Of a stretch of DNA of 64,000 nt, positions 5,074 to 62,835 are shown one piece after another. Source of the stretch: Candidatus Woesearchaeota archaeon (lineage in GTDB: Archaea > Nanobdellota > Nanobdellia > Woesearchaeales > 21-14-0-10-32-9); the NCBI GenBank assembly GCA_047602735.1, contig JBLKOK010000004.1, positions 13,480 through 77,479 on the forward strand, given 5' to 3'. Below the pieces are notes generated by a model that saw nothing but the letters and a program-made list of their open reading frames with translations, ran no database searches and had not been told where the DNA came from. How positions within the stretch are numbered: the first letter of the stretch is position 1; every line of letters begins with the position of its first letter. Made by a program: the position numbers and the translations under genes.

Positions 5074-5905
5074 TTTAGGGGTTGTTTTAAGAGATAGTTT
5101 AAATAAATTAAGATATGATCCTGATCAAGAAGGAGACTATGAGTTAGTGGGTAGATTTGTAGATGGTCAAAATTATATTGATATAAATTCTCCTGATGAA
5201 ATAACTAATTCTCTTGATGCTGTTATTTTTATGCACTATCCATTTAATAAGAATTTAGCTAAGATTTTTTCTGAAAAAGAATCTGATGTATTTTTTTTAA
5301 ATTCTCCTTCTGGTGTTTTAAACACTTCCGAAAAAACTTTTGAACATTTCAACTTTTCAAAATATATGCCGGAGTCCTTATATATAAATAAAGATGTGTC
5401 TGATGAAAATATACTTGAGTTTTTCAATTCGTATGAGTCTGTAATAGTAAAGCCTATTAATGGTACGGGGGGAAAAGGGATAGATTTATACAAAAAAGGG
5501 AGTGAATTACCTGATTTAATTTCTAAATATAAATCTGAAAATTATATAGCTCAGGAGTTTATAAAAAATGAAGGTGATAAAAGAATATTGTGTTTAGGGG
5601 GGGACATTTTAGGTTATTTTGGCAGATTTAATGATTCAAATTATATTAATAATATCTCTTCTGGAGGATCTATGATTTCTGTTGATCTTTCTAAAGAAGA
5701 AGTTGATATGGCATTAGATATTTCTAACAGATTAGTTAAAGAAGGTATTTATTTTTCTGGATTAGATGTGATTGATGGCAAATTGATAGAGGTAAACACT
5801 GCTTCTCCTGGGGGGATAGATGTGGTTGAACCTTATAAATTCAAATCAAAAGACAATATGTATGACTATGCTAAACGTAAAGTTTATGATTTGTTTAAAA
5901 AATGA
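5054..5905 (+). CDS. ATP-grasp ligase, glutathione synthetase (GshB)-like
   Basis: 283 aa. Motifs SPSGVLNTSEKTF, VIVKPINGTGGKGIDLY, EFIKNEGDKRILCLGG, NNISSGGS and GLDVIDGKLIEVNTASPGG mirror prokaryotic GshB. Confidence 0.8.
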   Translation: MNQSKFNLGVVLRDSLNKLRYDPDQEGDYELVGRFVDGQNYIDINSPDEITNSLDAVIFMHYPFNKNLAKIFSEKESDVFFLNSPSGVLNTSEKTFEHFNFSKYMPESLYINKDVSDENILEFFNSYESVIVKPINGTGGKGIDLYKKGSELPDLISKYKSENYIAQEFIKNEGDKRILCLGGDILGYFGRFNDSNYINNISSGGSMISVDLSKEEVDMALDISNRLVKEGIYFSGLDVIDGKLIEVNTASPGGIDVVEPYKFKSKDNMYDYAKRKVYDLFKK

Positions 5906-7041
5906 AGGTGGATAATTCTCTTAAATTCATAATTGATTTTGATAAAAGGTTATTTGACTTTATTAATAATCAAAGATTGAACGAGCCATATTTGTTCTTG
6001 AGTCCTAATAATAGGGCAAATCAAGAATCTTTATTTTTTGAAAGATTGGCGGCGGGGGCTAGTTATGAACCTAGTTTTGAATATGATGATTTGGGGTTTG
6101 AGCAGGAAATAAATACTTTAAATTCTTTCAAAGAAGAAATAAAACTTGCAAAATTAGACGAGTTCTTCAATAAATTGAGGGGCTTTTATATTGATAAAAT
6201 AGATGAAATTATTTTATTTGCTAAATTAATAGAGTCTAGAGGTACTAATAAATTTAACAATTATTCTATACAAGCTTATGGTAGTCCTACTAAAAAAGAT
6301 TTTTTATTGGCTTTTTTTATTGCAAAGATCTATTATTATTACGGCGTGATAGGTAAATTTTTTAAAAAGAGATATTTATCTCGAGATGATATTTATCTTT
6401 ATTTTAAATCTTTTTTTTTTAAAAAAAACATGATTGGTTGGAAGTTAGAGTTTGATGATGGTTTATTATCTACTGCTGTATTAATTTCTCATGAGAAAAA
6501 AGTAGTTCTTAATGGGAGACATTCTTTTACAAAACAAGAGATAATGATGTTGATAAGACATGAATTGGGTGTTCATGCATTAAGAAATATAGAGGGGGGT
6601 AAGGTTCTTGATTTATTTGCTTTTGGTTTCGCTAAGTATGATTTTTTAGAGGAGGGTCTTGCTACTTATAAAGAGTTTGGATTTTATAATCCTTTAGATG
6701 TTTTAATAGGTCCTGCTCTAAAATTAATTGCGGTATATAAAGCAAATAATTTGAGTTTTTTTGAGACGTATAGTTATTTAAAGAAATTAACATCTAATTC
6801 TCAATTATCTTTTGATTTAACTCTGAGGGCTAAAAGAGGGACGGAATTTAATGTGGGTGCTTACACAAAGGATTTTTTATATTTTAAGGGATACACTAAA
6901 TTATTGGTTTTAACGTTGAAAAATATTTTTAATCCTTTTTTTATAAATTCTCTTTCTATAGGTAAAATAGGATTTGGTGAAATTAAAGATTTGGATTATT
7001 TGAGAAAGATAAAAAAATTAATTCTTAATAAACGTAACTAA
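5902..7041 (+). CDS. MATCAP/DUF1704-family putative zinc carboxypeptidase (QEGLA-motif protein family)
   Basis: 379 aa. HELGVH (HExxxH) is followed about 25 residues later by EEGLATY (family signature QEGLA). Overlaps the preceding ATP-grasp gene by 4 nt. Confidence 0.65.
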   Translation: MKVDNSLKFIIDFDKRLFDFINNQRLNEPYLFLSPNNRANQESLFFERLAAGASYEPSFEYDDLGFEQEINTLNSFKEEIKLAKLDEFFNKLRGFYIDKIDEIILFAKLIESRGTNKFNNYSIQAYGSPTKKDFLLAFFIAKIYYYYGVIGKFFKKRYLSRDDIYLYFKSFFFKKNMIGWKLEFDDGLLSTAVLISHEKKVVLNGRHSFTKQEIMMLIRHELGVHALRNIEGGKVLDLFAFGFAKYDFLEEGLATYKEFGFYNPLDVLIGPALKLIAVYKANNLSFFETYSYLKKLTSNSQLSFDLTLRAKRGTEFNVGAYTKDFLYFKGYTKLLVLTLKNIFNPFFINSLSIGKIGFGEIKDLDYLRKIKKLILNKRN

Positions 7042-7065
7042 TATACAAAAACGTATACAAATAGA

Positions 7066-7080
7066 AACATTTATATATTA
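7066..7080 (+). promoter_or_regulatory. BRE/TATA-like promoter element (aacaTTTATATAtta)
   Basis: TTTATATA at 7070-7077, about 25 nt upstream of ATG 7102. The same spacing recurs at many first genes of operons in this window. Confidence 0.45.
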
Positions 7081-7101
7081 TTTGTGTTATTTAGTATAAA
7101 T

Positions 7102-7515
7102 ATGGTAATATTATTTGATCAATATAACTTGCCTGAAAGTATATTTGAAATTATTTTCAGCACAGAACAGCAAGTCATAGTTGCAAACTTATTACTAGAA
7201 GAAATGAAGTTAAAAGATGGAGAGATAGGAAAGACAGAAATGTCTATGTTTGCTACAGCTCTTCATGATGGTACGCTCATAAAACCAAAAGAATCGAAAG
7301 GTTTTTCCACAAAGAAACCTGAACCAATATCGTACAATAAAAGACAGTTTTATGATAGGATATTAACGCCTATGAAAACTATGGGTATGATAGATTATGA
7401 CATGTACAAGAAAACTTACAAAATTAGCGAAAAGTTCAATAAGAATATGATGAGAATTGGACTTTTATGGCTTCAAGAATTAAGAAAGCCGCCTAAAGCT
7501 CATACATTTAAGTAA
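7102..7515 (+). CDS. hypothetical protein
   Basis: Track ORF 7084-7515 starts at GTG. The in-frame ATG at 7102 sits about 25 nt after a TATA-like box. No recognisable domain. Confidence 0.4.
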   Translation: MVILFDQYNLPESIFEIIFSTEQQVIVANLLLEEMKLKDGEIGKTEMSMFATALHDGTLIKPKESKGFSTKKPEPISYNKRQFYDRILTPMKTMGMIDYDMYKKTYKISEKFNKNMMRIGLLWLQELRKPPKAHTFK

Positions 7516-7593: not shown

Positions 7594-8625
7594 TTAAAAT
7601 CCAAAGCTAAATATGTTTTGAAGAACAACTTGGAAAATTAAATATAAGACTGTACTTGTTACTATAAAGAATGGAAGGTATTTTATTCCTCCTTTTATAT
7701 CTCCTTTTTGAATTATACTTATTATCATGCTTGCAAACAAGCTTATAACTGCTAGTGCTGCTACTGAAAACCATTCAAAATAATCAGGGTCAATATCTAT
7801 TTCATTAATTGTAAACATAACATCTGTTCCTGCTGTCGCGCTTCCAAGTATCTGGGTTACATTAATTAAAACGATTAATAAGTTATAGGATAATGCAAAT
7901 AATAGGGGACTTATAACTAAAACTATAGCTCCAATAAAAATTGTGAAAGTAAGTGTATTTGCTGCCATCTGATTTTTTATATTTCTGCTTTTTCTAAGAT
8001 TATCTATTATACTATCTAAAACAGTTGTTATTTTTCCTCCTGTTTCCAGCTCGCTTACTAATATGTTTATGTTTCTATTAACTAATGCGCTATCGTATTT
8101 TTCTGCAAACGAAAGAAGAGCTTCATTAAGATCTGTTCCAGTCATAACTTTTTTACTAACTGTACTCATCTCTTCAGATAATATTCCAAATTCTGGTTTT
8201 ATACTTGCCCATAAACTTTTTTCAAAACTAAGTCCTCCTTTAAGATTTGTACTAACAACAACTAAGTAGTCAATCATATTTGCTTCAATTTCTTTAATTC
8301 TATTGTATATCTTAAGATTAAGAGAAAAATATATTCCTCCCATAACAACAACTATTATAAGTCCTCCTACAACTATCCAAAATAAAAACGTAAATAAACT
8401 AACAATAAAAGGGGAGTATTCTGATAATAATCCATAAACATTAAACCCGAAATATATTGCTGCAGTAAAAATCATGGTAAGTAAAAACATCAAAGAAAAA
8501 AAGTTATATGGTCTTTTTTGTATTCCTGCAGATGTTAAATATAGTCTAAGTTGAGGTCTAAACTTTTGTGGAACAAGACTTTGTCCAAACTGTTCTATTA
8601 TATTTATTTTATCTCCGGAATCCAT
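7594..8625 (-). CDS. type IV pilus/Tad-like platform membrane protein (T2SSF domain, TadC/FlaJ-like)
   Basis: 343 aa, polytopic. The cytoplasmic T2SSF-like segment is LKGGLSFEKSLWASIKPEFGILSEEM...LNEALLSFAEKY...ELETGGKITTVLDSI. Confidence 0.7.
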   Translation of the reverse strand: MDSGDKINIIEQFGQSLVPQKFRPQLRLYLTSAGIQKRPYNFFSLMFLLTMIFTAAIYFGFNVYGLLSEYSPFIVSLFTFLFWIVVGGLIIVVVMGGIYFSLNLKIYNRIKEIEANMIDYLVVVSTNLKGGLSFEKSLWASIKPEFGILSEEMSTVSKKVMTGTDLNEALLSFAEKYDSALVNRNINILVSELETGGKITTVLDSIIDNLRKSRNIKNQMAANTLTFTIFIGAIVLVISPLLFALSYNLLIVLINVTQILGSATAGTDVMFTINEIDIDPDYFEWFSVAALAVISLFASMIISIIQKGDIKGGIKYLPFFIVTSTVLYLIFQVVLQNIFSFGF

Positions 8626-8627
8626 TT

Positions 8628-9440
8628 TTATATATTTATATCTGGCCTTATAGCCTTATATGTGATTAGGAATAATAGTTGTATTGTTATTAAAAAGAAT
8701 AATATTATTCCAAAAAATAATATGCCTACTTCTATATTCATAAGACTAACTACTACTATCATAATTGTAAGTCCTAAGCTAGGAAGTACTACTGCTAATA
8801 GCATGTAAAATAATGTTAAACTATTTAGTTTTTTACCATATCTTTCAATTTCTAATATTTGTTCATGCGCAACATCGTCTAGTGTAGATTCTAAGTACTC
8901 AGTCACATCTATACCTATTTTTATTGCGTTACTTATTTGAAATAATATTCTTCTAAGTTTATCACTTGGACTATAATCTGATGCGTCGCTCAATGCATGT
9001 TCTAATGATTTTCCTAGTTGTATGTCTTCTACTATTTCTTTAAAATAATCATTTGCAACTCCAGGACTATTACTTGCGTCTATTAAAGCATTAATTAAGG
9101 GTTGTCCTGAATTTAGTTTTACTAATAAAAATCTTCCGCTAAACAAAACATCTCGGTCTATTATTTTTCTCCGACTAATAATTTTACTCTGAATTCCTAA
9201 TAAGGAATAGTAAAAAAATCCTAGTGTTAGAATAAAAAATCCTAGTGGTATAAATGCATAAGAATAGCCTCTTGAATCTACTAAAAAGAAAACCATGACT
9301 GTCATAAGGCCTCCCATTAAAAGACCTGATTTTATAGCTTCTAGTACTGCTTGCTCAGGTGTTTTTTTTATTCTAGCCATCTTAAGTTGTTTCTTAAGAT
9401 AAGGGAATTTTGTTGCTATTAGTTTTACTAAATTATTCAT
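8628..9440 (-). CDS. type IV pilus/Tad-like platform membrane protein (T2SSF domain, TadB-like)
   Basis: 270 aa. T2SSF-like segment LNSGQPLINALIDASNSPGV...IQLGKSLEHALSDAS...ISNAIKIGIDVTEYLES, flanked by TM helices. Confidence 0.7.
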   Translation of the reverse strand: MNNLVKLIATKFPYLKKQLKMARIKKTPEQAVLEAIKSGLLMGGLMTVMVFFLVDSRGYSYAFIPLGFFILTLGFFYYSLLGIQSKIISRRKIIDRDVLFSGRFLLVKLNSGQPLINALIDASNSPGVANDYFKEIVEDIQLGKSLEHALSDASDYSPSDKLRRILFQISNAIKIGIDVTEYLESTLDDVAHEQILEIERYGKKLNSLTLFYMLLAVVLPSLGLTIMIVVVSLMNIEVGILFFGIILFFLITIQLLFLITYKAIRPDINI

Positions 9441-10915
9441 TTTTTAATCTTTAACCTTCCTGTGTAGTATTTAGTCATAATGTTTCCAACATCGTGAATA
9501 TCTGATACTTTATTTTTAACCATCCACTTAAGTATGCTAACTTTTTCTTTTAAATCTTGACTTATTTTTTCTTTAGTCATTCCGGTATAAAGAGAAATGT
9601 TTTTCATCAGACTTATACTATTATTAACTTGAACCATTGTATCGTCTAAAACATTATATTGCATAAGTATTCTTTCTTCTCCTTCAGGTGTAATCTCTGC
9701 TATTTGAAATGTTCTTCTTTTACCTGTTTTTCTATTTCTATTTTGAACAAGTATTAATGACAAACTACTAAGCATCTTTTTTGGAACATCTATTGGGGGG
9801 TTTGTAAGTCTTGTTACTGTCTCTTCTGCAGTGCTTGCGTGAATAGTTGCATATACGCTATGACCGGTATGCATAGATTCCATTAAAACTTGGGCTTCTT
9901 CTTTTCTTCTTATCTCTCCAACTATTATTCTATCAGGTCTCATCCTAAGGCTATTTACAAGCAAATCTATCATTTTAACTCCTCCTTTACCTTCTGGATT
10001 TGGAAGCCTTGTAGCTAAAGGAACCCAGTGAAGTTGGCTTGGAAGCTCAAGTTCTCTTGTATCTTCAATACTTATAACTCTTTGATTTGGTGGTAAAAAA
10101 TTGCTAACTACATTAAGCATACTTGTTTTACCGCTACCTGTTCCTCCTGCAATCATGATACTCATCTCGTTTTGAATAGCAAGCCAAATAAGAGCTGCGG
10201 CGCTATATGTAATTGTTCCTTCTTGAATAAACTTAGTAATGGTCCAAGGATCCTCTGCAAACTTTCTAATTGTTAAAGTATTACCTTTAGAGCTTATAGG
10301 TGTAAGTGTTGCATTTACTCTATCTCCTGTTAAAAGATGTGCATCCATTAACGGATTTAAATTTGTTATTTCTTTATTAACATCTCTACCTATCATAGTT
10401 GCATAGTGCCTTATTCTGCTCTCGGTCAAAATATTTATATTTGTTTTAAGCCATCCAAATTTTTTATGATAAACCCAAACTGGTTCTCTATGACTATTAA
10501 TTACAATTTCTTCTAAGTTCGCGTCTTTTAGTAAAATATCTATTTTACCAAGCCCTAAATTTTCTTCTAGTAAATAGTTAAGCAAAGTATTTTTTGTACT
10601 AGGGCTGCTATCTGGGAAATATTTATCGATTAACTTAGAAATTTCTTCTTTAAATCTCTCTCTTAGATTATTAAAGTCTTCTTCTTTGCTTTTTTGTAGT
10701 TGATCAAAATTAAGTTTACCTATAAATTCTTCTCTGATTTTTTCAAGAACAATCTTGGTATTCTCGGTTATATTACTAACATTTATTATGTAGCTAGGAA
10801 CTGACTCGTTCTCATCATTTAGTATATTTATGTCAACAGTTATACCGTTTGCTTCTAAAGTATATTTATCTAGTAAATTATTACTATGGTTTTGTTCCAT
10901 TTTTAACTTTCTCAC
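9437..10915 (-). CDS. type II/IV secretion family ATPase (FlaI/TadA/VirB11-like)
   Basis: 492 aa. Walker A is GGTGSGKTS. It also has RPDRIIVGEIRRKEEAQVLMESMHTGHSVYATIHA (Walker B plus His box). The start is probably the MEQNHS ATG at 10900. Confidence 0.9.
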   Translation of the reverse strand: MRKLKMEQNHSNNLLDKYTLEANGITVDINILNDENESVPSYIINVSNITENTKIVLEKIREEFIGKLNFDQLQKSKEEDFNNLRERFKEEISKLIDKYFPDSSPSTKNTLLNYLLEENLGLGKIDILLKDANLEEIVINSHREPVWVYHKKFGWLKTNINILTESRIRHYATMIGRDVNKEITNLNPLMDAHLLTGDRVNATLTPISSKGNTLTIRKFAEDPWTITKFIQEGTITYSAAALIWLAIQNEMSIMIAGGTGSGKTSMLNVVSNFLPPNQRVISIEDTRELELPSQLHWVPLATRLPNPEGKGGVKMIDLLVNSLRMRPDRIIVGEIRRKEEAQVLMESMHTGHSVYATIHASTAEETVTRLTNPPIDVPKKMLSSLSLILVQNRNRKTGKRRTFQIAEITPEGEERILMQYNVLDDTMVQVNNSISLMKNISLYTGMTKEKISQDLKEKVSILKWMVKNKVSDIHDVGNIMTKYYTGRLKIKK

Positions 10916-11834
10916 CCTTTAATTCATTCATATTTTTTGCCATTTCAATTCTTTGATTAACAATATTTATTTTTGTTTCAAGCACTCTTTTTAGTCTACT
11001 ATAACTATCAGGTATTTTACTAACTTTATGTTTTAAGTCGATGACTTTCTGTCTTGCAGAAGTAAAATTTCCTTTTCTAACATCTTCTTTAATATTCTCA
11101 ATTATTGTATTTATATAATTTACTTTCAAATAGTTTTTTTTATCTGTCGGGGTTGTAACATCAAAACCATAGTTATCTGGCTTGTTTTTTTTATTTTTTA
11201 ATTCATCTCTTAATTTTTTAAGTTGTATATAATGAGCAAGCAAGTCATTGTAGTAATCTTGTTTGTCTGATTCAAATCTTCCAGGATATTGGTCAAAATA
11301 TAATCTCATTTTTCTATAGCTAGTGTATGCTTGTTTCAAATCCTTTTTTTTTATATACAAAAATATGTTTTTACTCTCTTCTTCAAACTTACCATCTAGT
11401 TCTGATTTTAATTTATAGTCTTTATCAGTTCTAAGTTTTTCTTTTTTTTCTCTCTCTTTTTCTTGTTCATCAAAAACAGTTATCTTAATATCTTTTTCAT
11501 TAAGTTGATCGTTTTCTTTCATTTTCTTAATTATTTTTCCAAGAGAATTATTCCAAGTTGTTTTATCTAAGTAATAAGAAGTTATTTTAACCATGTCTTG
11601 TATTTTATTCAAAGTAAGTTCTTTATAAATATCTGAGCTTGTAAGTTGATTATATTCTTTAACTAGTTGCTTTAAAATTTCTATTGCGTTTGTTATGTCG
11701 TGTCTTTTAAGGGCGTCTTTATAATCTTTTGTTCTATCTGTATAATTGCTGTTTGTGCTCTTTGCTTTTTCATCTAAAAATTGTATTATATCTTTTTCGA
11801 AATGTTTTTCTAATGCAATATTTTTAGAATTCAT
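10884..11834 (-). CDS. hypothetical Lys/Asp/Glu-rich coiled-coil protein in pilus locus
   Basis: 316 aa with no recognisable domain. Same strand as both neighbours and overlapping them. Confidence 0.45.
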   Translation of the reverse strand: MNSKNIALEKHFEKDIIQFLDEKAKSTNSNYTDRTKDYKDALKRHDITNAIEILKQLVKEYNQLTSSDIYKELTLNKIQDMVKITSYYLDKTTWNNSLGKIIKKMKENDQLNEKDIKITVFDEQEKEREKKEKLRTDKDYKLKSELDGKFEEESKNIFLYIKKKDLKQAYTSYRKMRLYFDQYPGRFESDKQDYYNDLLAHYIQLKKLRDELKNKKNKPDNYGFDVTTPTDKKNYLKVNYINTIIENIKEDVRKGNFTSARQKVIDLKHKVSKIPDSYSRLKRVLETKINIVNQRIEMAKNMNELKGEKVKNGTKP

Positions 11835-12253
11835 AGGTTAGTCACCTTATTTTTGTATTCTTGCCATAGCTTTTCAGGGTTTTGCAATCTTCTTTTTTTT
11901 GCTTCTCTAATAAAAAAAGTTTTATGATTTTCTATTACTTGTAAAATGTAGTTTTTCCAATTATACTCTTTCATACTCTCATTTAAAGAATTATCTTGTC
12001 CTTGGAATTCTTTTCTAAAATAATTTATATCTTTATTTTTATCAGCTGTTATTAGATACAGATAAGGTGTTGTAAGTCTATATTCTATTCCTATAACTTT
12101 TTCTTCAATTAAGAATTCTGCCCAGCTTTCTATAATTTTTGGAGTTGTATTTAAAGCTTTAGCTAAATCATTTATATTTGTTGGTTCGTGGAATTTAAGA
12201 TAACTAACAAGTTGATCTACTCCTGTTTCTATAGTAATTCTTGTATCTCCCAC
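11831..12253 (-). CDS. hypothetical protein, possible winged-helix domain, pilus locus
   Basis: 140 aa with a GTG start. The segment NINDLAKALNTTPKIIESWAEFLIEEKVIGIEY looks like an HTH. Overlaps the downstream gene by 4 nt. Confidence 0.4.
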   Translation of the reverse strand: MGDTRITIETGVDQLVSYLKFHEPTNINDLAKALNTTPKIIESWAEFLIEEKVIGIEYRLTTPYLYLITADKNKDINYFRKEFQGQDNSLNESMKEYNWKNYILQVIENHKTFFIREAKKRRLQNPEKLWQEYKNKVTNL

Positions 12254-12324
12254 TTAAACTTAGCACCTCTTTTAATTATATAATTTTATTTCTTGTATTT
12301 AAAATCTTTGTTTAATATTCTCTA

Positions 12325-13344
12325 TTAAGGACAACTAATAGTGCTAATATATGTGGTGTTACTCATATTAGTAAAATTCGCTATTATTTCAGGTAATATT
12401 GCTCCATCAAGCCCTTCTCCTTCAAATATTCCTGCCAATCCATCTTGAATAAAATCTGAGTTTGAGAAATTATATTTAACTAAAGGTATACTTGAATTAC
12501 AGGTTTGGCTCCAAAAATAAGTATCTATGTGTATTACTCCGTCATATATACCTGTTTTATTTGGTTCTACTATAGATATTATTCCTCTTGGTCCAGGGGT
12601 ATAATTTCCTCTAAGTCTGTTTAAAAAACTAACTCCTGCAGGATGTGCAAAATAAGTTCCATTTACAACTAAAGTGTTAAGATCACTGGGAATTTCTCTC
12701 CATTGTCCTTGTGCTCTACCTCCTCTAGTTATGTTATTAGAAAACTGGAAGTCTTCAACATCGTCATGTATGTTTATTTCATAAACTAAATCGGGCATAC
12801 CTTCAATTGGTATTCTACCAACACTTGTTCTTGAAATATTCCAGTTTGCAAACCCATCACTAACAATAAAATCGTATTCTAAAACTAAGTCTATGTGCCA
12901 AGCAGTTGTTTGTCTCAAAAATAAGTTTCTTTGATGTATCTCAATATCTATATTAAAATATTTATCAAGTAACTCTTTCCAAACATTCAATCTTTCTGTT
13001 AAATAACTATCATCACTACAACTAACAACAGTTCCTAAATGATTAAATTCTTTATCAATCAAACAGCTAATTAATTCAGTATCATAATCCTCTATAAAGC
13101 TCTCAGAGCTTATACTTGCAGAAATAGTCTCTATTATTGCATTAGTGCCAGTAACAGTTAAGATATTAGAAATATAATTATCTGATTGAGATATGAATTG
13201 ATTAGTATTTCTTATTTTTGTTTCTTCAACGCTTAGCAGTTCATTTATGGGTGTTCTATTAGCAAATAAGAAAAGGGTTAGAAGTATAATAGAAAACACT
13301 ATTACTATGCTTGTAAATACAAAACCTTTTTTATTTAATACCAT
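12325..13344 (-). CDS. type IV pilin-like protein (class III signal peptide), large globular domain
   Basis: N-terminus MVLNKKG/FVFTSIVIVFSIILLTLFLF fits the archaeal prepilin motif: basic residues, Gly, then a hydrophobic helix. Many N-x-S/T sequons. Confidence 0.6.
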   Translation of the reverse strand: MVLNKKGFVFTSIVIVFSIILLTLFLFANRTPINELLSVEETKIRNTNQFISQSDNYISNILTVTGTNAIIETISASISSESFIEDYDTELISCLIDKEFNHLGTVVSCSDDSYLTERLNVWKELLDKYFNIDIEIHQRNLFLRQTTAWHIDLVLEYDFIVSDGFANWNISRTSVGRIPIEGMPDLVYEINIHDDVEDFQFSNNITRGGRAQGQWREIPSDLNTLVVNGTYFAHPAGVSFLNRLRGNYTPGPRGIISIVEPNKTGIYDGVIHIDTYFWSQTCNSSIPLVKYNFSNSDFIQDGLAGIFEGEGLDGAILPEIIANFTNMSNTTYISTISCP

Positions 13345-13820
13345 ATAGTTATCCTCGTTATATTTGGTCCGAATACTTCGTCGTTATATCTATAATAGGT
13401 AAGTAAATTCATACTTATATTAATCCTGGGATTTATAACGTTTTGATTATCTAAAAAAATTGTGTCATTATTTAATGTATAACTAATACCTCTTCCTTCA
13501 GGAATTATTTGTCTAACAATATTTCTTATAAAATCGTTTGCTTTAGTCTCATTTCCTTGGTTTATATATAAGTTGTGTATTTGTTCATGTACTTTAAGAC
13601 TTCCAACACCCTCGTTTTGTGCATCGTATTCATAAATTAGTCCTACTGCGTCCATATCTGTAAACATTAAATAATCATATAAGTTTTGCAAGTTTGCCTG
13701 TGTATCGTCAAGTCTTGGTCCGTCTACACTAAGGTTTAATGCGAGCACTATTGTTAAAGAAAGTATGATTCCTGCAATTAGTGTATCTAGTGTAAAAAAT
13801 AATGCTCCTCTTTTATTCAT
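13335..13820 (-). CDS. type IV pilin-like protein (class III signal peptide)
   Basis: N-terminus MNKRG/ALFFTLDTLIAGIILSLTIVLAL is a typical archaeal prepilin signal. 161 aa. Confidence 0.65.
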   Translation of the reverse strand: MNKRGALFFTLDTLIAGIILSLTIVLALNLSVDGPRLDDTQANLQNLYDYLMFTDMDAVGLIYEYDAQNEGVGSLKVHEQIHNLYINQGNETKANDFIRNIVRQIIPEGRGISYTLNNDTIFLDNQNVINPRINISMNLLTYYRYNDEVFGPNITRITIWY

Positions 13821-13873
13821 AATAAAATTATATGTTAATTCATATTAAAAAGATTTCTCTTTATATTACTGTT

Positions 13874-14989
13874 TTAGTTTCTATAAATTGCTATCTTAAC
13901 AGTTATTTGTTCATTATTAAGAGTTCTTACAAAATCTCTTGTTAAAAGATCAGACACGTCTCCGCTTATTTCCAGTATAGGTCTAGATATTATCTGTGTG
14001 TCTTGATTACAACACTGAGCAACTTCTACATGTGTATCATTTATTCTTCCAAGTGTAACTGTGCTTCCTGCAGGTCTTCCATTACATGTATCTGCAATAC
14101 TTATATTTTGATCTAGTACTTCGCTATAAGGCATGTTAAAAGAACAATTATTTTGGCCTTCACAAAACGATCTACATATTGGGACTCCATCAACATTATC
14201 AATTGTACATTGGTTTTCGTTACATGACGCTTCTCTTAAAGGACAATCTATTATCATTGTTCCTCTGTGTATAAATAAAGATTCGATGTCAAACGGTTCA
14301 TAGTTTTCTTTTACACATTCAACATTAAAGTTCCCTCTAATTCCGTCTGTTTCTAATTTTCCATCCTCGTTAACCACGATTTCTATTGGAGATACTGTGC
14401 TTTGAGGATTTTCTGGTGTAAATCTAAGGCTTGCTCTAGGTATTGGTTCTCCTGTTGTACTATCAAACGTGTTTATTCTAAGTGTGTTGGTACAATCTGG
14501 ATCTGGGCAGTTATAGCATCCGGCGGTTCTTGGAACATTAGTACAAACTGCTCTAAGCGCTTCTTCTTCATTTGAAATATCTTGACTACAAGTAATGCTA
14601 CTAGCATTCCAGCTTTCGCCATCATATCTCTCTATTGACTGGCAGGTTCCTCCAAGAATCGGACAAGCTTCATCGCCTGTATTATAAATGATAGAATATT
14701 CATCAAAATCATTAGGTCTTATCGTGTTATCTCCTTTAAGTTGTATTCTTAATCTTTCAGGAACAGTTTCCATTTCATCAGAAGCAAAGTCCTCGGGACA
14801 AACTCCGTCTGATACTCCGCAAATAAAACAATTTTCGCATAGTTGAACAGCTCCTGTTCCTGGTTCTGTTATACTAAAAGATCCACATGCTTCGTCTGAG
14901 TCTGGATCGCACGCTTGAGCTTGAATTAAAGGTATAAATAAACCTATTCCTATTAAAAATGCAGCTATAAATAAAAGATTTCTCACCAT
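13874..14989 (-). CDS. secreted cysteine-rich protein (23 Cys), possible pilus-associated adhesin
   Basis: Sec-type signal MVRNLLFIAAFLIGIGLFIPLIQAQA. I count 23 cysteines in 371 aa. The central LRINTFDSTTGEPIPRASLRF resembles a CarboxypepD_reg/Ig-like strand pattern. Confidence 0.55.
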   Translation of the reverse strand: MVRNLLFIAAFLIGIGLFIPLIQAQACDPDSDEACGSFSITEPGTGAVQLCENCFICGVSDGVCPEDFASDEMETVPERLRIQLKGDNTIRPNDFDEYSIIYNTGDEACPILGGTCQSIERYDGESWNASSITCSQDISNEEEALRAVCTNVPRTAGCYNCPDPDCTNTLRINTFDSTTGEPIPRASLRFTPENPQSTVSPIEIVVNEDGKLETDGIRGNFNVECVKENYEPFDIESLFIHRGTMIIDCPLREASCNENQCTIDNVDGVPICRSFCEGQNNCSFNMPYSEVLDQNISIADTCNGRPAGSTVTLGRINDTHVEVAQCCNQDTQIISRPILEISGDVSDLLTRDFVRTLNNEQITVKIAIYRN

Positions 14990-15034: not shown

Positions 15035-16090
15035 TCATATTATTAGTCTTTTTCCATCCAGTTTTATAACAGGATTCTTTATTACTTGGTCTAAGTGTAT
15101 TATGCTTTTTATATCTCCGCCAAACCAATAATTACTTCCTATTGCAAAATGTGCTGTTCCAAGAACTTTCTCATCTATAATTGTACTTCCAATTATTTTA
15201 GCTCTCTCATTTAACCCAATACCTAGCTCTCCTATCCTTATACATCTATCAGGATATTTAGCTTTTGCTTGAGCCCATTTTAAAGTATTGTTTAACATTG
15301 TTGCTTCCATAGTATCATTAATATTTGTTATTGAGCCATTCTTTATTTCTAATTCTATAGGATTTTTAACTTTAACAGTAGTAGTTTTAACATTAGAACT
15401 ACCGTCAATAACGATTGTGCCTTCAACTTTTTTACCATTTGGAGCAGTATACGCTTCGGCTCCCGGAATATTTCCTCCTTTACCATTCTCATGATATACT
15501 CCTGTACTATCTCTTGCTTCTATTCCTTCAATATTATAAAGAATATCTGTTCCTAGCTTAGTTTTAACATGAACTTCGCTTGTATTATCTAATTTTTCTT
15601 TCAGTCTCAGAGTTTTCTTTTGTAATTTTTTATAATCTACATCTAAGCAGTTAACAACTAATCTAAGATTATCATTAGTTATAGTTCCAAGACTGCTCGC
15701 GCTTCCAAATCTATGATTTCTCTTGGCAGCAAACTTCCTATAACTCTTACCTATTTCGCCAAGTCCACCTATACCTTGACTGGTATTAATCAACAAAACA
15801 TTTCCTTTATCTAATTTAACCATGCTATTAACTATTTTCTTATCAGCATCTTGTCCTACTTCCTTTCTATCTTGCAAAAGCATCTTATGTTTTATTCCAA
15901 GCTCTTTTGCAGCAAGACTATATCCATAAGTTAAAAGACCTGAAACATTCTTATCTTCTTCTCCCTTATCTCCAATTATAAGTAATTCTTCATTCGTTAA
16001 ATTAAGATTATAGCTTAATACTTTTTTAAAAATACCAATTTTAGAACTAAGATATTCTTCATACTCTTTTTTTACATCCTCAAAATTCAT
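15035..16090 (-). CDS. aminopeptidase, M29 (AmpS/PepS) family
   Basis: 351 aa. GNIPGAEAYTAPNGKKVEGTIVIDGS and LGTAHFAIGSNY...IHLD match M29 signature regions. Confidence 0.7.
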   Translation of the reverse strand: MNFEDVKKEYEEYLSSKIGIFKKVLSYNLNLTNEELLIIGDKGEEDKNVSGLLTYGYSLAAKELGIKHKMLLQDRKEVGQDADKKIVNSMVKLDKGNVLLINTSQGIGGLGEIGKSYRKFAAKRNHRFGSASSLGTITNDNLRLVVNCLDVDYKKLQKKTLRLKEKLDNTSEVHVKTKLGTDILYNIEGIEARDSTGVYHENGKGGNIPGAEAYTAPNGKKVEGTIVIDGSSNVKTTTVKVKNPIELEIKNGSITNINDTMEATMLNNTLKWAQAKAKYPDRCIRIGELGIGLNERAKIIGSTIIDEKVLGTAHFAIGSNYWFGGDIKSIIHLDQVIKNPVIKLDGKRLII

Positions 16091-39114: not shown

Positions 39115-39801
39115 ATGGCAAAATCGTCAAAAAAAAGAAAAACTGCAGCTAAAAAAACTGCAACAAAACCAAAAAGCGAAGAGACATTATCAATCTCAAA
39201 AACGGCTTTATGGCAAATTATTTCTGGAGCTTTAGCAGTGATACTAATAGTTTTACTAGCATTTAGCTTCACAAATACAACGACAACACAACCAGGACAA
39301 CCTCTTGAAGGTGCAAGAAGCGTTGGTGATGAAAACGCACCTGTTGTAATAGTTGAGTACAGTGACTTTACATGTCTTTTCTGTAAAAGATTTTATGATG
39401 ATACGTATGGTCTAATAAAACAGAACTTTATTGATCAAGGACTTGTTAGGTTTGTATACAAGGATTTCCCTGTTGTTGGTGGTCAAAGAGCTGCTGAAGC
39501 AGGATGGTGTGCACATGAACAAGATAGATTCTTTGATTATAAAGATAGAATTTTCCAAACACCTACTCAAGTAAGTGATTCAAACTTAATTGCATGGGCA
39601 GGAGAATTAGGACTAAATGTTGGTCAGTTTGAAGAATGTTTAACTACTGGAAGATACCAAAGTAATGTTGCTGCTGAAAGGCAAGAAGCAATAAACAATG
39701 GTGTAAGGGGAACTCCTGGGTTCTTAATTAACGGTCAGTTAGTTAGTGGAGCTCAACCATACAACGTCTTTGAACAAGCAATTAATGCAGCTCTAAATTA
39801 A
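39115..39801 (+). CDS. DsbA-family thiol:disulfide oxidoreductase, membrane anchored
   Basis: 228 aa. N-terminal Lys-rich region plus a TM helix. Active site is YSDFTCLFCKRF (CxxC). A cis-Pro region (RGTPGFLING) is also present. Shine-Dalgarno ggaggtg lies 11 nt upstream. Confidence 0.75.
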   Translation: MAKSSKKRKTAAKKTATKPKSEETLSISKTALWQIISGALAVILIVLLAFSFTNTTTTQPGQPLEGARSVGDENAPVVIVEYSDFTCLFCKRFYDDTYGLIKQNFIDQGLVRFVYKDFPVVGGQRAAEAGWCAHEQDRFFDYKDRIFQTPTQVSDSNLIAWAGELGLNVGQFEECLTTGRYQSNVAAERQEAINNGVRGTPGFLINGQLVSGAQPYNVFEQAINAALN

Positions 39802-39882
39802 AAGAGCTAACTTTTTTCTTTTTTTTCTTTTTTTAATTAAAATAATAAAAAAATTTATATACTACTATTGAGTAACTATGTT

Positions 39883-40401
39883 ATGAAGGGAATAATTATA
39901 GGGTTTTTAGGGGTATTTTTACAATTAGTAGGAGCTATATCATTTTACAACAATGCAAACTTTTTTGGACTTGCAATATCTGTTATTGGAGCAACATTAG
40001 TTTTTATAATGATTGCAAACTTTGCTTTAAAAAAATCTTATCAAATATTCATTGTATCTTCAACTCTTTTATTCTTAGTTATCATAACTTTAGACTTATT
40101 ACTTGATTTTGTATCATTTAACTATGTGTTCATGGTGGCTTTACTTGCAATAGTATTAATTATGATGCCATTTAGTAAATTAACAAAAAGAAAAGTAATC
40201 AGGACAAAAAAACAAGTTCAAAAAGAAGTAGTTAATGAAAAAGAACAAATGGTTATAGCGTTAAAAAACGGAACTATTTTCCACAGGTTGAATTGTCCGC
40301 TTATACAAAAATCTAAAAAACAAAACTTGATTTATTTCAAGTCTGCAAAAGAAGCTATATCTAAGGGGTACAGGCCTTGTAAGATGTGTGATCCTCAATA
40401 A
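39883..40401 (+). CDS. four-TM membrane protein fused to an Ada-like Cys-rich metal-binding motif
   Basis: C-terminal IFHRLNCPLIQKSKKQNLIYFKSAKEAISKGYRPCKMCDP resembles the Ada_Zn_binding pattern FHxxxC...F.s...A...GyRPCkxC.P. ATG 39883 lies about 25 nt after tttatatac. Confidence 0.45.
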   Translation: MKGIIIGFLGVFLQLVGAISFYNNANFFGLAISVIGATLVFIMIANFALKKSYQIFIVSSTLLFLVIITLDLLLDFVSFNYVFMVALLAIVLIMMPFSKLTKRKVIRTKKQVQKEVVNEKEQMVIALKNGTIFHRLNCPLIQKSKKQNLIYFKSAKEAISKGYRPCKMCDPQ

Positions 40402-61332: not shown

Positions 61333-61413
61333 ACTTTTTTTTTAAAATTATCGCATATTAACAGAAAAATATATAAACTTAATACTAAGCATTTATGAGT
61401 GGGAGGAATACAT

Positions 61414-62835
61414 ATGAAAAAAGCATTAATTTTAACTTTACTAGTCTTGGCATTACCTTTTTTAATGCCACAAGTTCAAGCAATAGAGGTTGAAGTTCAA
61501 CCAATAGTTGACAGAATACCGCCTCAAGGAATAGCATCTTATAATATTACAATTACAAATCCTGAATCTAGGGACATATCTGTTAGCTGGTCTCTTAGTC
61601 CTGCTCAGGCAACAAATTGGATTATAAGTCCAAACAGTGTTTCTGTTCCTGCTTTAGATTCAAGATCTTTTACTCTAACTGCAATACCAAAAAGTGTTGT
61701 AATTCCTTCTCAATATAACTTGTTATTTGATTTTAGGTATTTGGGAATAAGTCAAGAAATTCGTATTCCTGCAAGGGTTGTAAGTGTAGACTCGGTCTTT
61801 GGATTTCAGCCTCACATATCTCTTGTTTTAGAACATGATAGACAAGCAGATCCAAGACAGCCTTATAGGGTATCTGTAACTGTTATAAATCAAAATCCTA
61901 GAAATTTAGAAAACTTACAAATAAGATTAGAAAGTCCTTTATTTTCAAGAGAGTTTGATCTTAATGTTTCTCCTAGTGGACAAATAACTAGGGAAGTACA
62001 ATTTGAAATAGATCCTCTTCAAGAACCAGGAACTTATCAGCTTTATGCAAGAGCATTTTATCCTGTAACTAATACTGTATTAAATGATAAGAGTTCTAAC
62101 TTTGAAGTTATATCCTACAGTGATATAATGCCTAGATTTGAAAGTAAAACTTCTTGGTTTAAAACAACACAAACTATTACTATAATAAATAATGGTAATG
62201 TGGCTAGAACAAAAGAAGTTGCACTTAAAGCTCCTTTTTATCAAAGATTATTCTTGTCTTCATCACAAGAATATGAAATTGTAAGTATTGATGGGTCTGC
62301 AAATGTTCAATGGGCTCCATTTTTACAACCTGCTGAACAAATAGATATAATTGTAACTAAAAATTATAGGCCGTTAGTTATAGTAATATTATTGTTATTG
62401 GTGGGTACTGTTTTATATTTTGTGTTGAGAAGTCCTTTAGTTGTTCAAAAACATGCATTTGTTATAAAACAACTAGAAGAAGGCGTTTCTGATATAAAAA
62501 TAAGGTTATATGTCAAAAATAGGTCCAAGAAGGTTATCTATAACATAAATATAAGTGATATGATTCCTAGAATAACTGAGTTTGTTCCAAGTAATCAGTT
62601 AGGGAGTCTAAAGCCTACAAAGGTTACAAATACGAGTAAAAAAGGAACTATACTTAATTGGAACTTTGAAAGTTTAGATGCTTTAGAAGAGAGAATTGTT
62701 ACTTATAAGATTAGAAGTACGCTCAGAATAGTGGGGGATTTATCATTACCTAAAGCAAGAGTTAAATTTGAAAATTCTGAAGGCAAAGAATCATTTGTTG
62801 ATTCTTCAACTGCTAAGTTTTTTTCTAAACAGTAA
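61414..62835 (+). CDS. cell-surface protein: signal peptide, beta-rich ectodomain, TM helix, DUF11/CARDB-like C-terminal domain
   Basis: ATG 61414 (MKKALILTLLVLALPFLMPQVQA) lies 8 nt after gggagg. TM helix RPLVIVILLLLVGTVLYFVL is at about residue 325. No catalytic motifs. Confidence 0.55.
   Translation: MKKALILTLLVLALPFLMPQVQAIEVEVQPIVDRIPPQGIASYNITITNPESRDISVSWSLSPAQATNWIISPNSVSVPALDSRSFTLTAIPKSVVIPSQYNLLFDFRYLGISQEIRIPARVVSVDSVFGFQPHISLVLEHDRQADPRQPYRVSVTVINQNPRNLENLQIRLESPLFSREFDLNVSPSGQITREVQFEIDPLQEPGTYQLYARAFYPVTNTVLNDKSSNFEVISYSDIMPRFESKTSWFKTTQTITIINNGNVARTKEVALKAPFYQRLFLSSSQEYEIVSIDGSANVQWAPFLQPAEQIDIIVTKNYRPLVIVILLLLVGTVLYFVLRSPLVVQKHAFVIKQLEEGVSDIKIRLYVKNRSKKVIYNINISDMIPRITEFVPSNQLGSLKPTKVTNTSKKGTILNWNFESLDALEERIVTYKIRSTLRIVGDLSLPKARVKFENSEGKESFVDSSTAKFFSKQ

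Follow-up and report, generated by a model that had tools for sequence, protein, structure and literature searches.

A Woesearchaeal gene locus with a two-gene platform, probably encoding the assembly machinery of a type IV filament other than the archaellum

Among the archaea that have not been cultured, Woesearchaeota belong to the most abundant ones. A stretch of 64,000 nucleotides (nt) from one such genome (Candidatus Woesearchaeota archaeon, NCBI GenBank assembly GCA_047602735.1, contig JBLKOK010000004.1, positions 13,480 to 77,479 of the forward strand; the whole stretch is called the window in the following) has been analysed here with a focus on the locus at 7594-14989, which encodes an ATPase of the secretion superfamily together with two platform proteins, two pilin-like proteins and three accessory proteins, and which probably specifies the assembly machine of a type IV filament other than the archaellum. 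The guanine-plus-cytosine (GC) content of the window is ~29% and the public runs that contain its sequence are lake-water metagenomes; its source is a tiny freshwater archaeon with a probably symbiotic life style.

Layout of the locus

The locus consists of eight co-oriented open reading frames (ORFs) on the minus strand, all coordinates of which were reproduced in an ORF check of the window (Table 1). An earlier note on this DNA, made from the sequence alone, had described the genes as mostly overlapping and, in fact, neighbouring genes either overlap or are separated by 2 nt, except at two junctions with spacers that measure 53 nt and 71 nt. The ATPase probably starts at the ATG at 10900, which gives a protein of 487 amino acids (aa) instead of the 492 aa of the longest reading frame.

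Table 1. Genes of the filament locus in the order of transcription, with the junction to the subsequent gene
Feature	Position	Strand	Evidence	Junction with next gene
Cys-rich secreted protein, 371 aa	13874-14989	-	ORF list	
Pilin-like protein, 161 aa	13335-13820	-	ORF list, class III motif	10-nt overlap
Pilin-like protein, 339 aa	12325-13344	-	ORF list, class III motif	
Winged-helix protein, 140 aa	11831-12253	-	ORF list, predicted fold	4-nt overlap
Predicted helical-repeat protein, 316 aa	10884-11834	-	ORF list	overlap
T2SSE ATPase, 492 aa	9437-10915	-	Pfam	4-nt overlap
Platform N-half, 270 aa, one T2SSF domain	8628-9440	-	Pfam, NCBIfam	2-nt gap
Platform C-half, 343 aa, one T2SSF domain	7594-8625	-	Pfam, NCBIfam	

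Both spacers are AT-rich and TATA-like. Boxes resembling TTTAAATA (TTTAAATA-like boxes) occur in the two spacers as well as in the 45 nt 5' of the first gene, and an oligo-T tract is located 3' of the last gene, which encodes the 343-aa platform protein. The position of these boxes and of the oligo-T tract suggests that the locus is divided into three transcription units, namely the Cys-rich gene alone, which appears to possess a promoter of its own, the pair of pilin-like genes and a motor module of five genes. The motor module begins with the gene of the cytoplasmic 140-aa winged-helix protein, and the subsequent 316-aa gene is translationally coupled to both of its flanking genes.

The ATPase and its two-gene platform

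A Pfam scan assigns the ATPase to the T2SSE family (PF00437, E 2e-37). Among the named NCBIfam models, the FlaI equivalog model scores best with 276 bits, its cut-off being 550 bits, followed by the TadA model TIGR03819 (186 bits, cut-off 373) and the model of the bindosome ATPase BasE (160 bits, cut-off 1000). Ranking of the solved structures places GspE of A. fulgidus (2OAP, 233 bits) before FlaI (195 bits) and CpaF (167 bits). Across 25 ATPase homologues, the P-loop GGTGSGKT (Walker A) is kept, with one position being near-invariant, and the blocks IEDTRE, RPDRI.VGE.R and HTGH......H, taken here to be Asp box, Walker B and His box, are equally invariant or near-invariant. The protein is a catalytically intact, hexamer-type ATPase of the FlaI/TadA/VirB11 type within the secretion superfamily. 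Many of its homologues (P0130, P0133, P0137 and others) are ~1000-1400 aa long and match in two stretches with a break near query residues 254-289, a pattern expected from intein insertions.

Each of the two membrane proteins encoded downstream of the ATPase contains one T2SSF domain (PF00482, E 5e-12 and 8e-11, respectively), so that the FlaI/TadA-type ATPase and the two T2SSF proteins recognized in the earlier note have been retrieved by dedicated family models. On the NCBIfam ArlJ/FlaJ model, which comprises 465 positions, the stretch 3-176 is covered by the 270-aa protein and the stretch 189-463 by the 343-aa protein; the scores are 31 and 42 bits, with the cut-off at 400 bits. The same arrangement is seen upon comparison with an unsplit haloarchaeal PilC of 679 aa, as the family profile of the 270-aa protein covers residues 124-321 and the family profile of the 343-aa protein residues 426-678 (75 bits). 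Furthermore, on the Rhizobium proteins the profile of the 270-aa family scores 10 bits with TadC versus 0 bits with TadB, and the profile of the 343-aa family 34 bits with TadB versus 20 bits with TadC. As judged from these alignments, the 270-aa protein corresponds to the N-terminal (TadC-type) half and the 343-aa protein to the C-terminal (TadB-type) half of an unsplit platform, an assignment that agrees with the published finding that TadC resembles the N-half and TadB the C-half of the platform (Denise et al. 2019, PMC6668835). With this assignment, the order ATPase, N-half, C-half is collinear with the unsplit gene and opposite to the order tadB-tadC.

A frameshifted single gene as the source of the two platform ORFs, a possibility that the earlier note had named as refuting its own description, has been ruled out. 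One scan of GTDB species genomes provided 80 related loci, and in 69 of 69 related species-level loci the platform ORFs are separate, with a distance between them ranging from an 11-nt overlap (-11) to +393 nt and with all three relative reading frames being realized. Independent assemblies of two runs that belong to a single study show the present junction unchanged, and over 451 nt an assembly of a different study deviates in 17 substitutions but in no indel. The split platform is thus genuine. Two apparent fusions of the ATPase with the platform (in L015 and L047) turned out to be out-of-frame ORF-calling artefacts in genomes of 64-67% GC.

The two-gene platform had previously been addressed as the bacterial Tad arrangement. 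However, two platform genes with a single T2SSF domain each are a hallmark of the archaeal Epd-like systems (system 1), are also present in systems 4A and 4B (PMC13705601), and have been recognized as a pair of tadC-like genes of archaeal clades 1, 2 and 4B (Makarova et al. 2016). The fissioned platform is shared between Epd-like systems and Tad, with Tad being considered a derivative of such an archaeal system (Denise et al. 2019, PMC6668835). As the split platform is known from archaeal Epd/system 1, it is neither a bacterial trait nor new.

Pilin-like and accessory proteins in a conserved gene order

Prepilin-type (class III) signals, as ascribed before to two proteins of the locus, were searched for with a FlaFind-style pattern and hydrophobicity scan at every ORF start in the window, used in place of the dedicated FlaFind and PilFind programs. 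The six rows obtained fall on four loci, two of which are the 161-aa (KRG/ALFF...) and the 339-aa protein (KKG/FVFT...). The other two candidates were discounted, the one at 39868-40401 with four predicted transmembrane (TM) segments and the one at 61399-62835 with a Sec-like leader. Since the class III N-termini of both pilin-like proteins are also kept in homologues from dozens of species, the two signals can be upheld.

The 161-aa protein starts with MNKRG/ALFFTLD. In 33 aligned homologues, the family consensus is KRG/AYFFVIDA with an invariant Asp at position +7, and GP...E...W is found towards the C-terminus. The AlphaFold2 model of this protein (predicted local distance difference test, pLDDT, 89) consists of an N-terminal helix at residues 3-32, additional helices and a four-stranded sheet, in the model a pilin-like architecture. 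The 339-aa protein starts with MVLNKKG/FVFTS, with NKKG/xxFT in the family, and carries 11 N-x-S/T sequons in this genome, which bears out its earlier description as sequon-rich. C282 and C338 are invariant in the family alignment and the protein may contain a disulfide. No PDB-sequence or Pfam relative was found in profile searches of either family. The 161-aa protein is probably a minor pilin, and the 339-aa protein is probably a large minor pilin or a tip subunit.

The 371-aa protein possesses a Sec leader and 23 Cys, in agreement with the previously described Sec-secreted Cys-rich protein. Its family alignment contains 15 invariant columns, mostly Cys, with the motifs CPEDF and CxDPDC, and a conserved C-terminal strand PVKVxIAYW; the family profile matches the carboxypeptidase D regulatory domain (E 8e-5), with a central beta-sandwich. 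Encoded by an optional first gene, this protein is a candidate tip-associated adhesin. Elsewhere in the window, a membrane-anchored DsbA/thioredoxin-like protein with an N-terminal hydrophobic segment is encoded at 39115-39801 on the plus strand (Pfam 4e-29); that this protein is the oxidase for the 23-Cys protein and for the disulfide of the 339-aa protein is plausible.

For the 140-aa protein, the AlphaFold2 model (pLDDT 85) combines a winged helix with a subsequent helical tail, and the Foldseek matches are exclusively of the MarR/ArsR type (E ~4e-3), so that the winged-helix-like character proposed from the sequence has found support in the predicted structure. The family, which has no Pfam domain, is made up of at least 955 clusters (90% identity), nearly all of which are named 'hypothetical'. 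A classical DNA-binding repressor is nevertheless unlikely, because the winged-helix domain (median isoelectric point, pI, 4.7 in the family) and its third helix (net charge -2) are acidic, although the tail is basic (pI 9.5).

The 316-aa protein, which had been described as a Lys/Asp-rich coiled-coil protein, is soluble, basic and helical. The family members range from 305 to 700 aa, none of 69 has a TM segment, and conservation is poor with the exception of a short N-terminal motif. Pfam matches to TPR-like families are weak and sub-threshold, and the fold would be a helical repeat that is either TPR-like or coiled-coil.

The nearest relatives of the window are found in metagenome-assembled genomes (MAGs) labelled Woesearchaeota or Nanoarchaeia. 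Among the related loci in general, the labels are mostly Woesearchaeota, Nanoarchaeota or Nanoarchaeia, and others are generic or evidently wrong, such as 'uncultured Methanosarcinales' and one 'Alphaproteobacteria'. In the 46 species-level loci with at least 5.5 kb of sequence upstream of the ATPase, the gene order is constant, with the winged-helix gene present in all 46, the helical-repeat gene in 45 and both pilin-like genes in 39; a Cys-rich gene precedes the pilin pair in 20 of the 46 loci. Such a recurring order indicates that the arrangement is more than chance. A cassette of seven to eight genes kept in strict order across dozens of species, together with ATPase orthologues that are 61-87% identical across Woesearchaeota and have intact motifs, argues for a working machine. 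Multiplication of the locus has also been observed. In L031 (13643-17201), a second ATPase, 50% identical to the first one, and a second two-gene platform follow in tandem directly after the first, and two MAGs harbour two unlinked copies each (L013 and L025; L052 and L062).

More distant representatives, with ATPases that are 39-55% identical, were inspected as well. Homologues of the winged-helix gene are located directly upstream of the ATPase in six of these (L087, L088, L089, L091, L092 and L093), one of which (L087) carries the source label Altiarchaeota. The accessory genes had been considered lineage-specific, which does not apply to the winged-helix gene; that the accessory proteins are unannotated holds true. 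Outside the Woesearchaeal loci, no helical-repeat gene was detected among these distant representatives. A two-gene platform is present in L088, L089, L091, L092 and L093, L087 has a single platform of 579 aa (5757-7496) next to its winged-helix-like gene, and L090 consists of an orphan ATPase with no platform beside it. KaiC/FlaH-like genes occur 3' of the platform in L087, L089 and L092, and canonical pilins are encoded in L088, L091 and L093.

Directly before the winged-helix gene, L087, L089, L092 and L093 possess ORFs with the same two N-terminal types as the pilin-like pair, and L091 possesses profile-confirmed homologues of both proteins. Canonical Q-x-S/A-x-E pilins are encoded further upstream or after the platform in these loci. 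Because the distant loci pair the same N-termini with separate canonical pilins, the pilin-like pair would represent motor-proximal minor pilins and not the major subunit. An IS605 OrfB/TnpB-type gene is located between the pilin-like and winged-helix genes of L092 (4973-6109).

The unsplit platform of L087 matches both half profiles, with 146 and 152 bits. In the ATPase tree, in which CpaF sits on a very long branch, L087 is the sister of the split L092 (support 98/96), and the pair is placed inside a clade of split systems (95/96). As its ATPase nests among those of split systems, the unsplit platform of L087 looks secondary, which suggests a gene fusion.

Several other genes of the window deserve mention. 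A 143-aa protein without a Pfam family is encoded at 7084-7515 on the plus strand, which with 70-93% identity across Woesearchaeota is more conserved than the ATPase. In 12 related loci its gene lies close to the pilus genes, in many cases in convergent orientation to the last platform gene. An M29-family aminopeptidase-like gene (15035-16090, minus strand) is located directly 5' of the Cys-rich gene, a place that it also takes in several very close relatives (L008, L011, L012 and L035), and is probably only a neighbour. The ORF at 39868-40401 on the plus strand, one of the discounted class III candidates, encodes a protein of 177 aa that combines four N-terminal hydrophobic segments with a C-terminal Ada-type zinc-binding domain (Pfam 2e-11), an unusual combination.

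Assembly of a type IV filament and comparison with known systems

Taken together, we consider it likely that the locus encodes the machine with which Woesearchaeota assemble a type IV filament other than the archaellum, and that it belongs to the archaeal Epd-like or 'system 1' group or is close to it. In such a machine, a prepilin peptidase encoded elsewhere would cleave the KRG/A and KKG/F leaders, whereupon the 161-aa and 339-aa minor pilins would form a priming or tip complex on the platform. Where present, the Sec-exported, disulfide-rich 371-aa protein would join the tip complex as an adhesin. The ATPase would polymerise major pilins encoded in trans, as Q-x-S-x-E pilins flank the locus in relatives. 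In place of FlaH/KaiC-like or TadZ/MinD-like proteins, the winged-helix protein, which is acidic, and the helical-repeat protein would be its cytoplasmic partners. The filament would probably mediate attachment to a partner cell or to a surface.

A number of observations weigh against this interpretation. No prepilin peptidase is encoded among the multi-TM ORFs of the 64-kb window, in accordance with the earlier note, and the class III scan identified no major pilin in the window, including no short one (~60-70 aa) among the ORFs of at least 35 aa. As neither component is found in the window, peptidase and major pilin probably act in trans; flaK has been reported along with flaI and flaJ in Woesearchaeota genomes (PMC5994134). 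Equally, there is no secondary ATPase in the window, and a FlaH-like query was negative in the window and in ~80 related loci with their flanks of ~10 kb. A fold search did not provide a significant match of the 161-aa model to any solved pilin or PDB fold. By score, the ATPase is nearer to GspE of A. fulgidus and to FlaI than to CpaF, and membership in the Epd/system 1 group is proposed from the platform architecture. The putative roles of the winged-helix, helical-repeat and Cys-rich proteins are read from position and composition. Finally, no transcripts were recovered from three lake metatranscriptomes, where only low-complexity 31-mers matched, a result of weak negative value.

Among the alternatives, the one that survives best, albeit improbable, is that the same machine builds a short pseudopilus only, which displays or exports cargo with class III signals such as binding proteins and cell-wall hydrolases in a bindosome- or type II secretion-like manner. 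The homology of the ATPase to the bindosome ATPase BasE and the lack of a major pilin adjoining the motor are consistent with such a function, and functionalised filaments with class III-signal binding proteins have been proposed (PMC13705601). The BasE score is, however, far under the cut-off of its model, ordinary Q-x-S-x-E pilin genes lie beside the motor in related loci, and no obvious cargo is encoded in the window.

Somewhat more doubtful still is a far-reaching version of the filament interpretation, in which the operon would be the sole motor for pilin-like proteins encoded elsewhere and the winged-helix and helical-repeat proteins would constitute a new module that replaces FlaH or TadZ. 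The two minor pilins would then combine with the C-terminal strand of the Cys-rich protein into a PilK-PilY1-like, strand-complemented licensing tip, and the filament would grip a bacterial host and deliver lytic enzymes.

DPANN cells lack many biosynthetic pathways, and a DNA-uptake (competence-type) pilus could supply nucleotides or genes to such a biosynthesis-poor cell. Several lineages do take up DNA by means of type IV filaments, and in Sulfolobus DNA is exchanged with the help of the Ups pilus (PMC13705601). Yet, no ComEC-, ComEA- or DNA-translocase-like gene is present among the 28 window ORFs scanned with Pfam, which comprise the flanks of the locus, or among the Pfam-matching called genes of the inspected related loci, the locus has no second, PilT-like ATPase, and the acidic winged-helix domain is unlikely to bind DNA, so that this function has very little probability. 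A degenerate archaellum as a motility organelle is hardly credible, since, although source annotations name the homologues 'flagellar protein FlaI' and flaI/flaJ/flaK have been listed as Woesearchaeota flagellar genes (PMC5994134, PMC11606122), the FlaI and ArlJ scores argue against this flagellar annotation, no archaellin-like gene is present in the window or within ~10 kb in related loci, with the pilin-like pair having no archaellin match, a search of the window and of the related loci equally yielded no FlaF/G- or FlaH-like gene, and the published classification gives the two-gene platform to systems 1, 4A and 4B and not to the archaellum. That the locus encodes a pilus rather than an archaellum, as had been proposed, therefore stands, and the common 'flagellar' annotation of these genes is corrected.

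The core of the locus is ordinary, with a two-gene platform already known from archaea; five of the eight proteins are undescribed, with the same gene order across the lineage. These five unannotated families, two with class III signals, the winged-helix, the helical-repeat and the Cys-rich secreted family, are now defined as targets for structural modelling, antibodies and cryo-electron tomography. In addition, the unsplit platform nested among split ones provides a data point on platform gene fission and fusion. System 1 has been reported in DPANN/Nanobdellati (Sivabalasarma & Albers 2026, PMC13705601; PMC4858521), where ATPase and platform genes are adjacent and pilins scattered, and where, as stated there, it is unclear whether a functional structure results (Sivabalasarma & Albers 2026, PMC13705601). 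According to the latest census, DPANN rarely possess ordered type IV filament loci (Sivabalasarma & Albers 2026).

Compared with known systems, a similarity exists to the episymbiotic Patescibacteria or Candidate Phyla Radiation, for example Saccharibacteria, equally ultrasmall, host-dependent cells which bind to their hosts by means of type IV pili (PMC11623550). The analogy concerns life style only, as the bacterial type IVa pilus machinery with PilB/PilT is involved there and homology exists at the superfamily level only.

The archaellum motor ArlI/ArlJ (FlaI/FlaJ) shares with the locus a homologous ATPase and platform, and its models are the best-scoring named ones in NCBIfam. Different from the archaellum, the ATPase scores at about half of the ArlI/FlaI cut-off and the platform proteins at about a tenth of that for ArlJ/FlaJ, the platform is a split one, and archaellins and ArlF/G/H/X/CDE are absent. 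With the euryarchaeal 'system 2' (Haloferax PilB/PilC; A. fulgidus GspE), the locus has in common the best solved match of its ATPase (2OAP) and, as deduced here with respect to adhesion, an adhesion-type filament with pilins partly in trans. The platform of system 2 is, however, one two-domain gene, and its ATPase has a long N-terminal extension, the haloarchaeal example measuring 989 and 679 aa, respectively.

Like bacterial Tad/Flp, the locus has a platform split into two single-domain proteins beside a related ATPase, with the 343-aa protein similar to TadB and the 270-aa protein similar to TadC. The term 'Tad-like' used initially is nevertheless loose. Tad has TadB (C-half) followed by TadC (N-half), which is the reverse of the order here, the ATPase does not reach the TadA cut-off, and among the three solved relatives CpaF gives the lowest score. 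Neither a secretin (RcpA), TadZ/CpaE, TadD/E/F/G nor a Flp-type pilin is present, and the remaining proteins of the locus have no match to a Tad family in Pfam or NCBIfam.

Closest in architecture is the Epd/system 1 pilus (EpdJ/EpdK/EpdL of M. maripaludis; clade 1 of Makarova 2016). Unlike Epd, the Woesearchaeal loci are without a FlaH/MinD-type second ATPase and without a dedicated EppA-type peptidase nearby, have winged-helix and helical-repeat genes directly upstream of the ATPase, and encode pilin-like proteins that belong to no Pfam family. A FlaH/KaiC-like gene as in Epd is encountered, but only among more distantly related loci. On the other hand, an ATPase gene with two adjacent platform genes of one T2SSF domain each and several class III minor pilins in the locus are common to both, and the major pilins of Epd systems are often encoded elsewhere.

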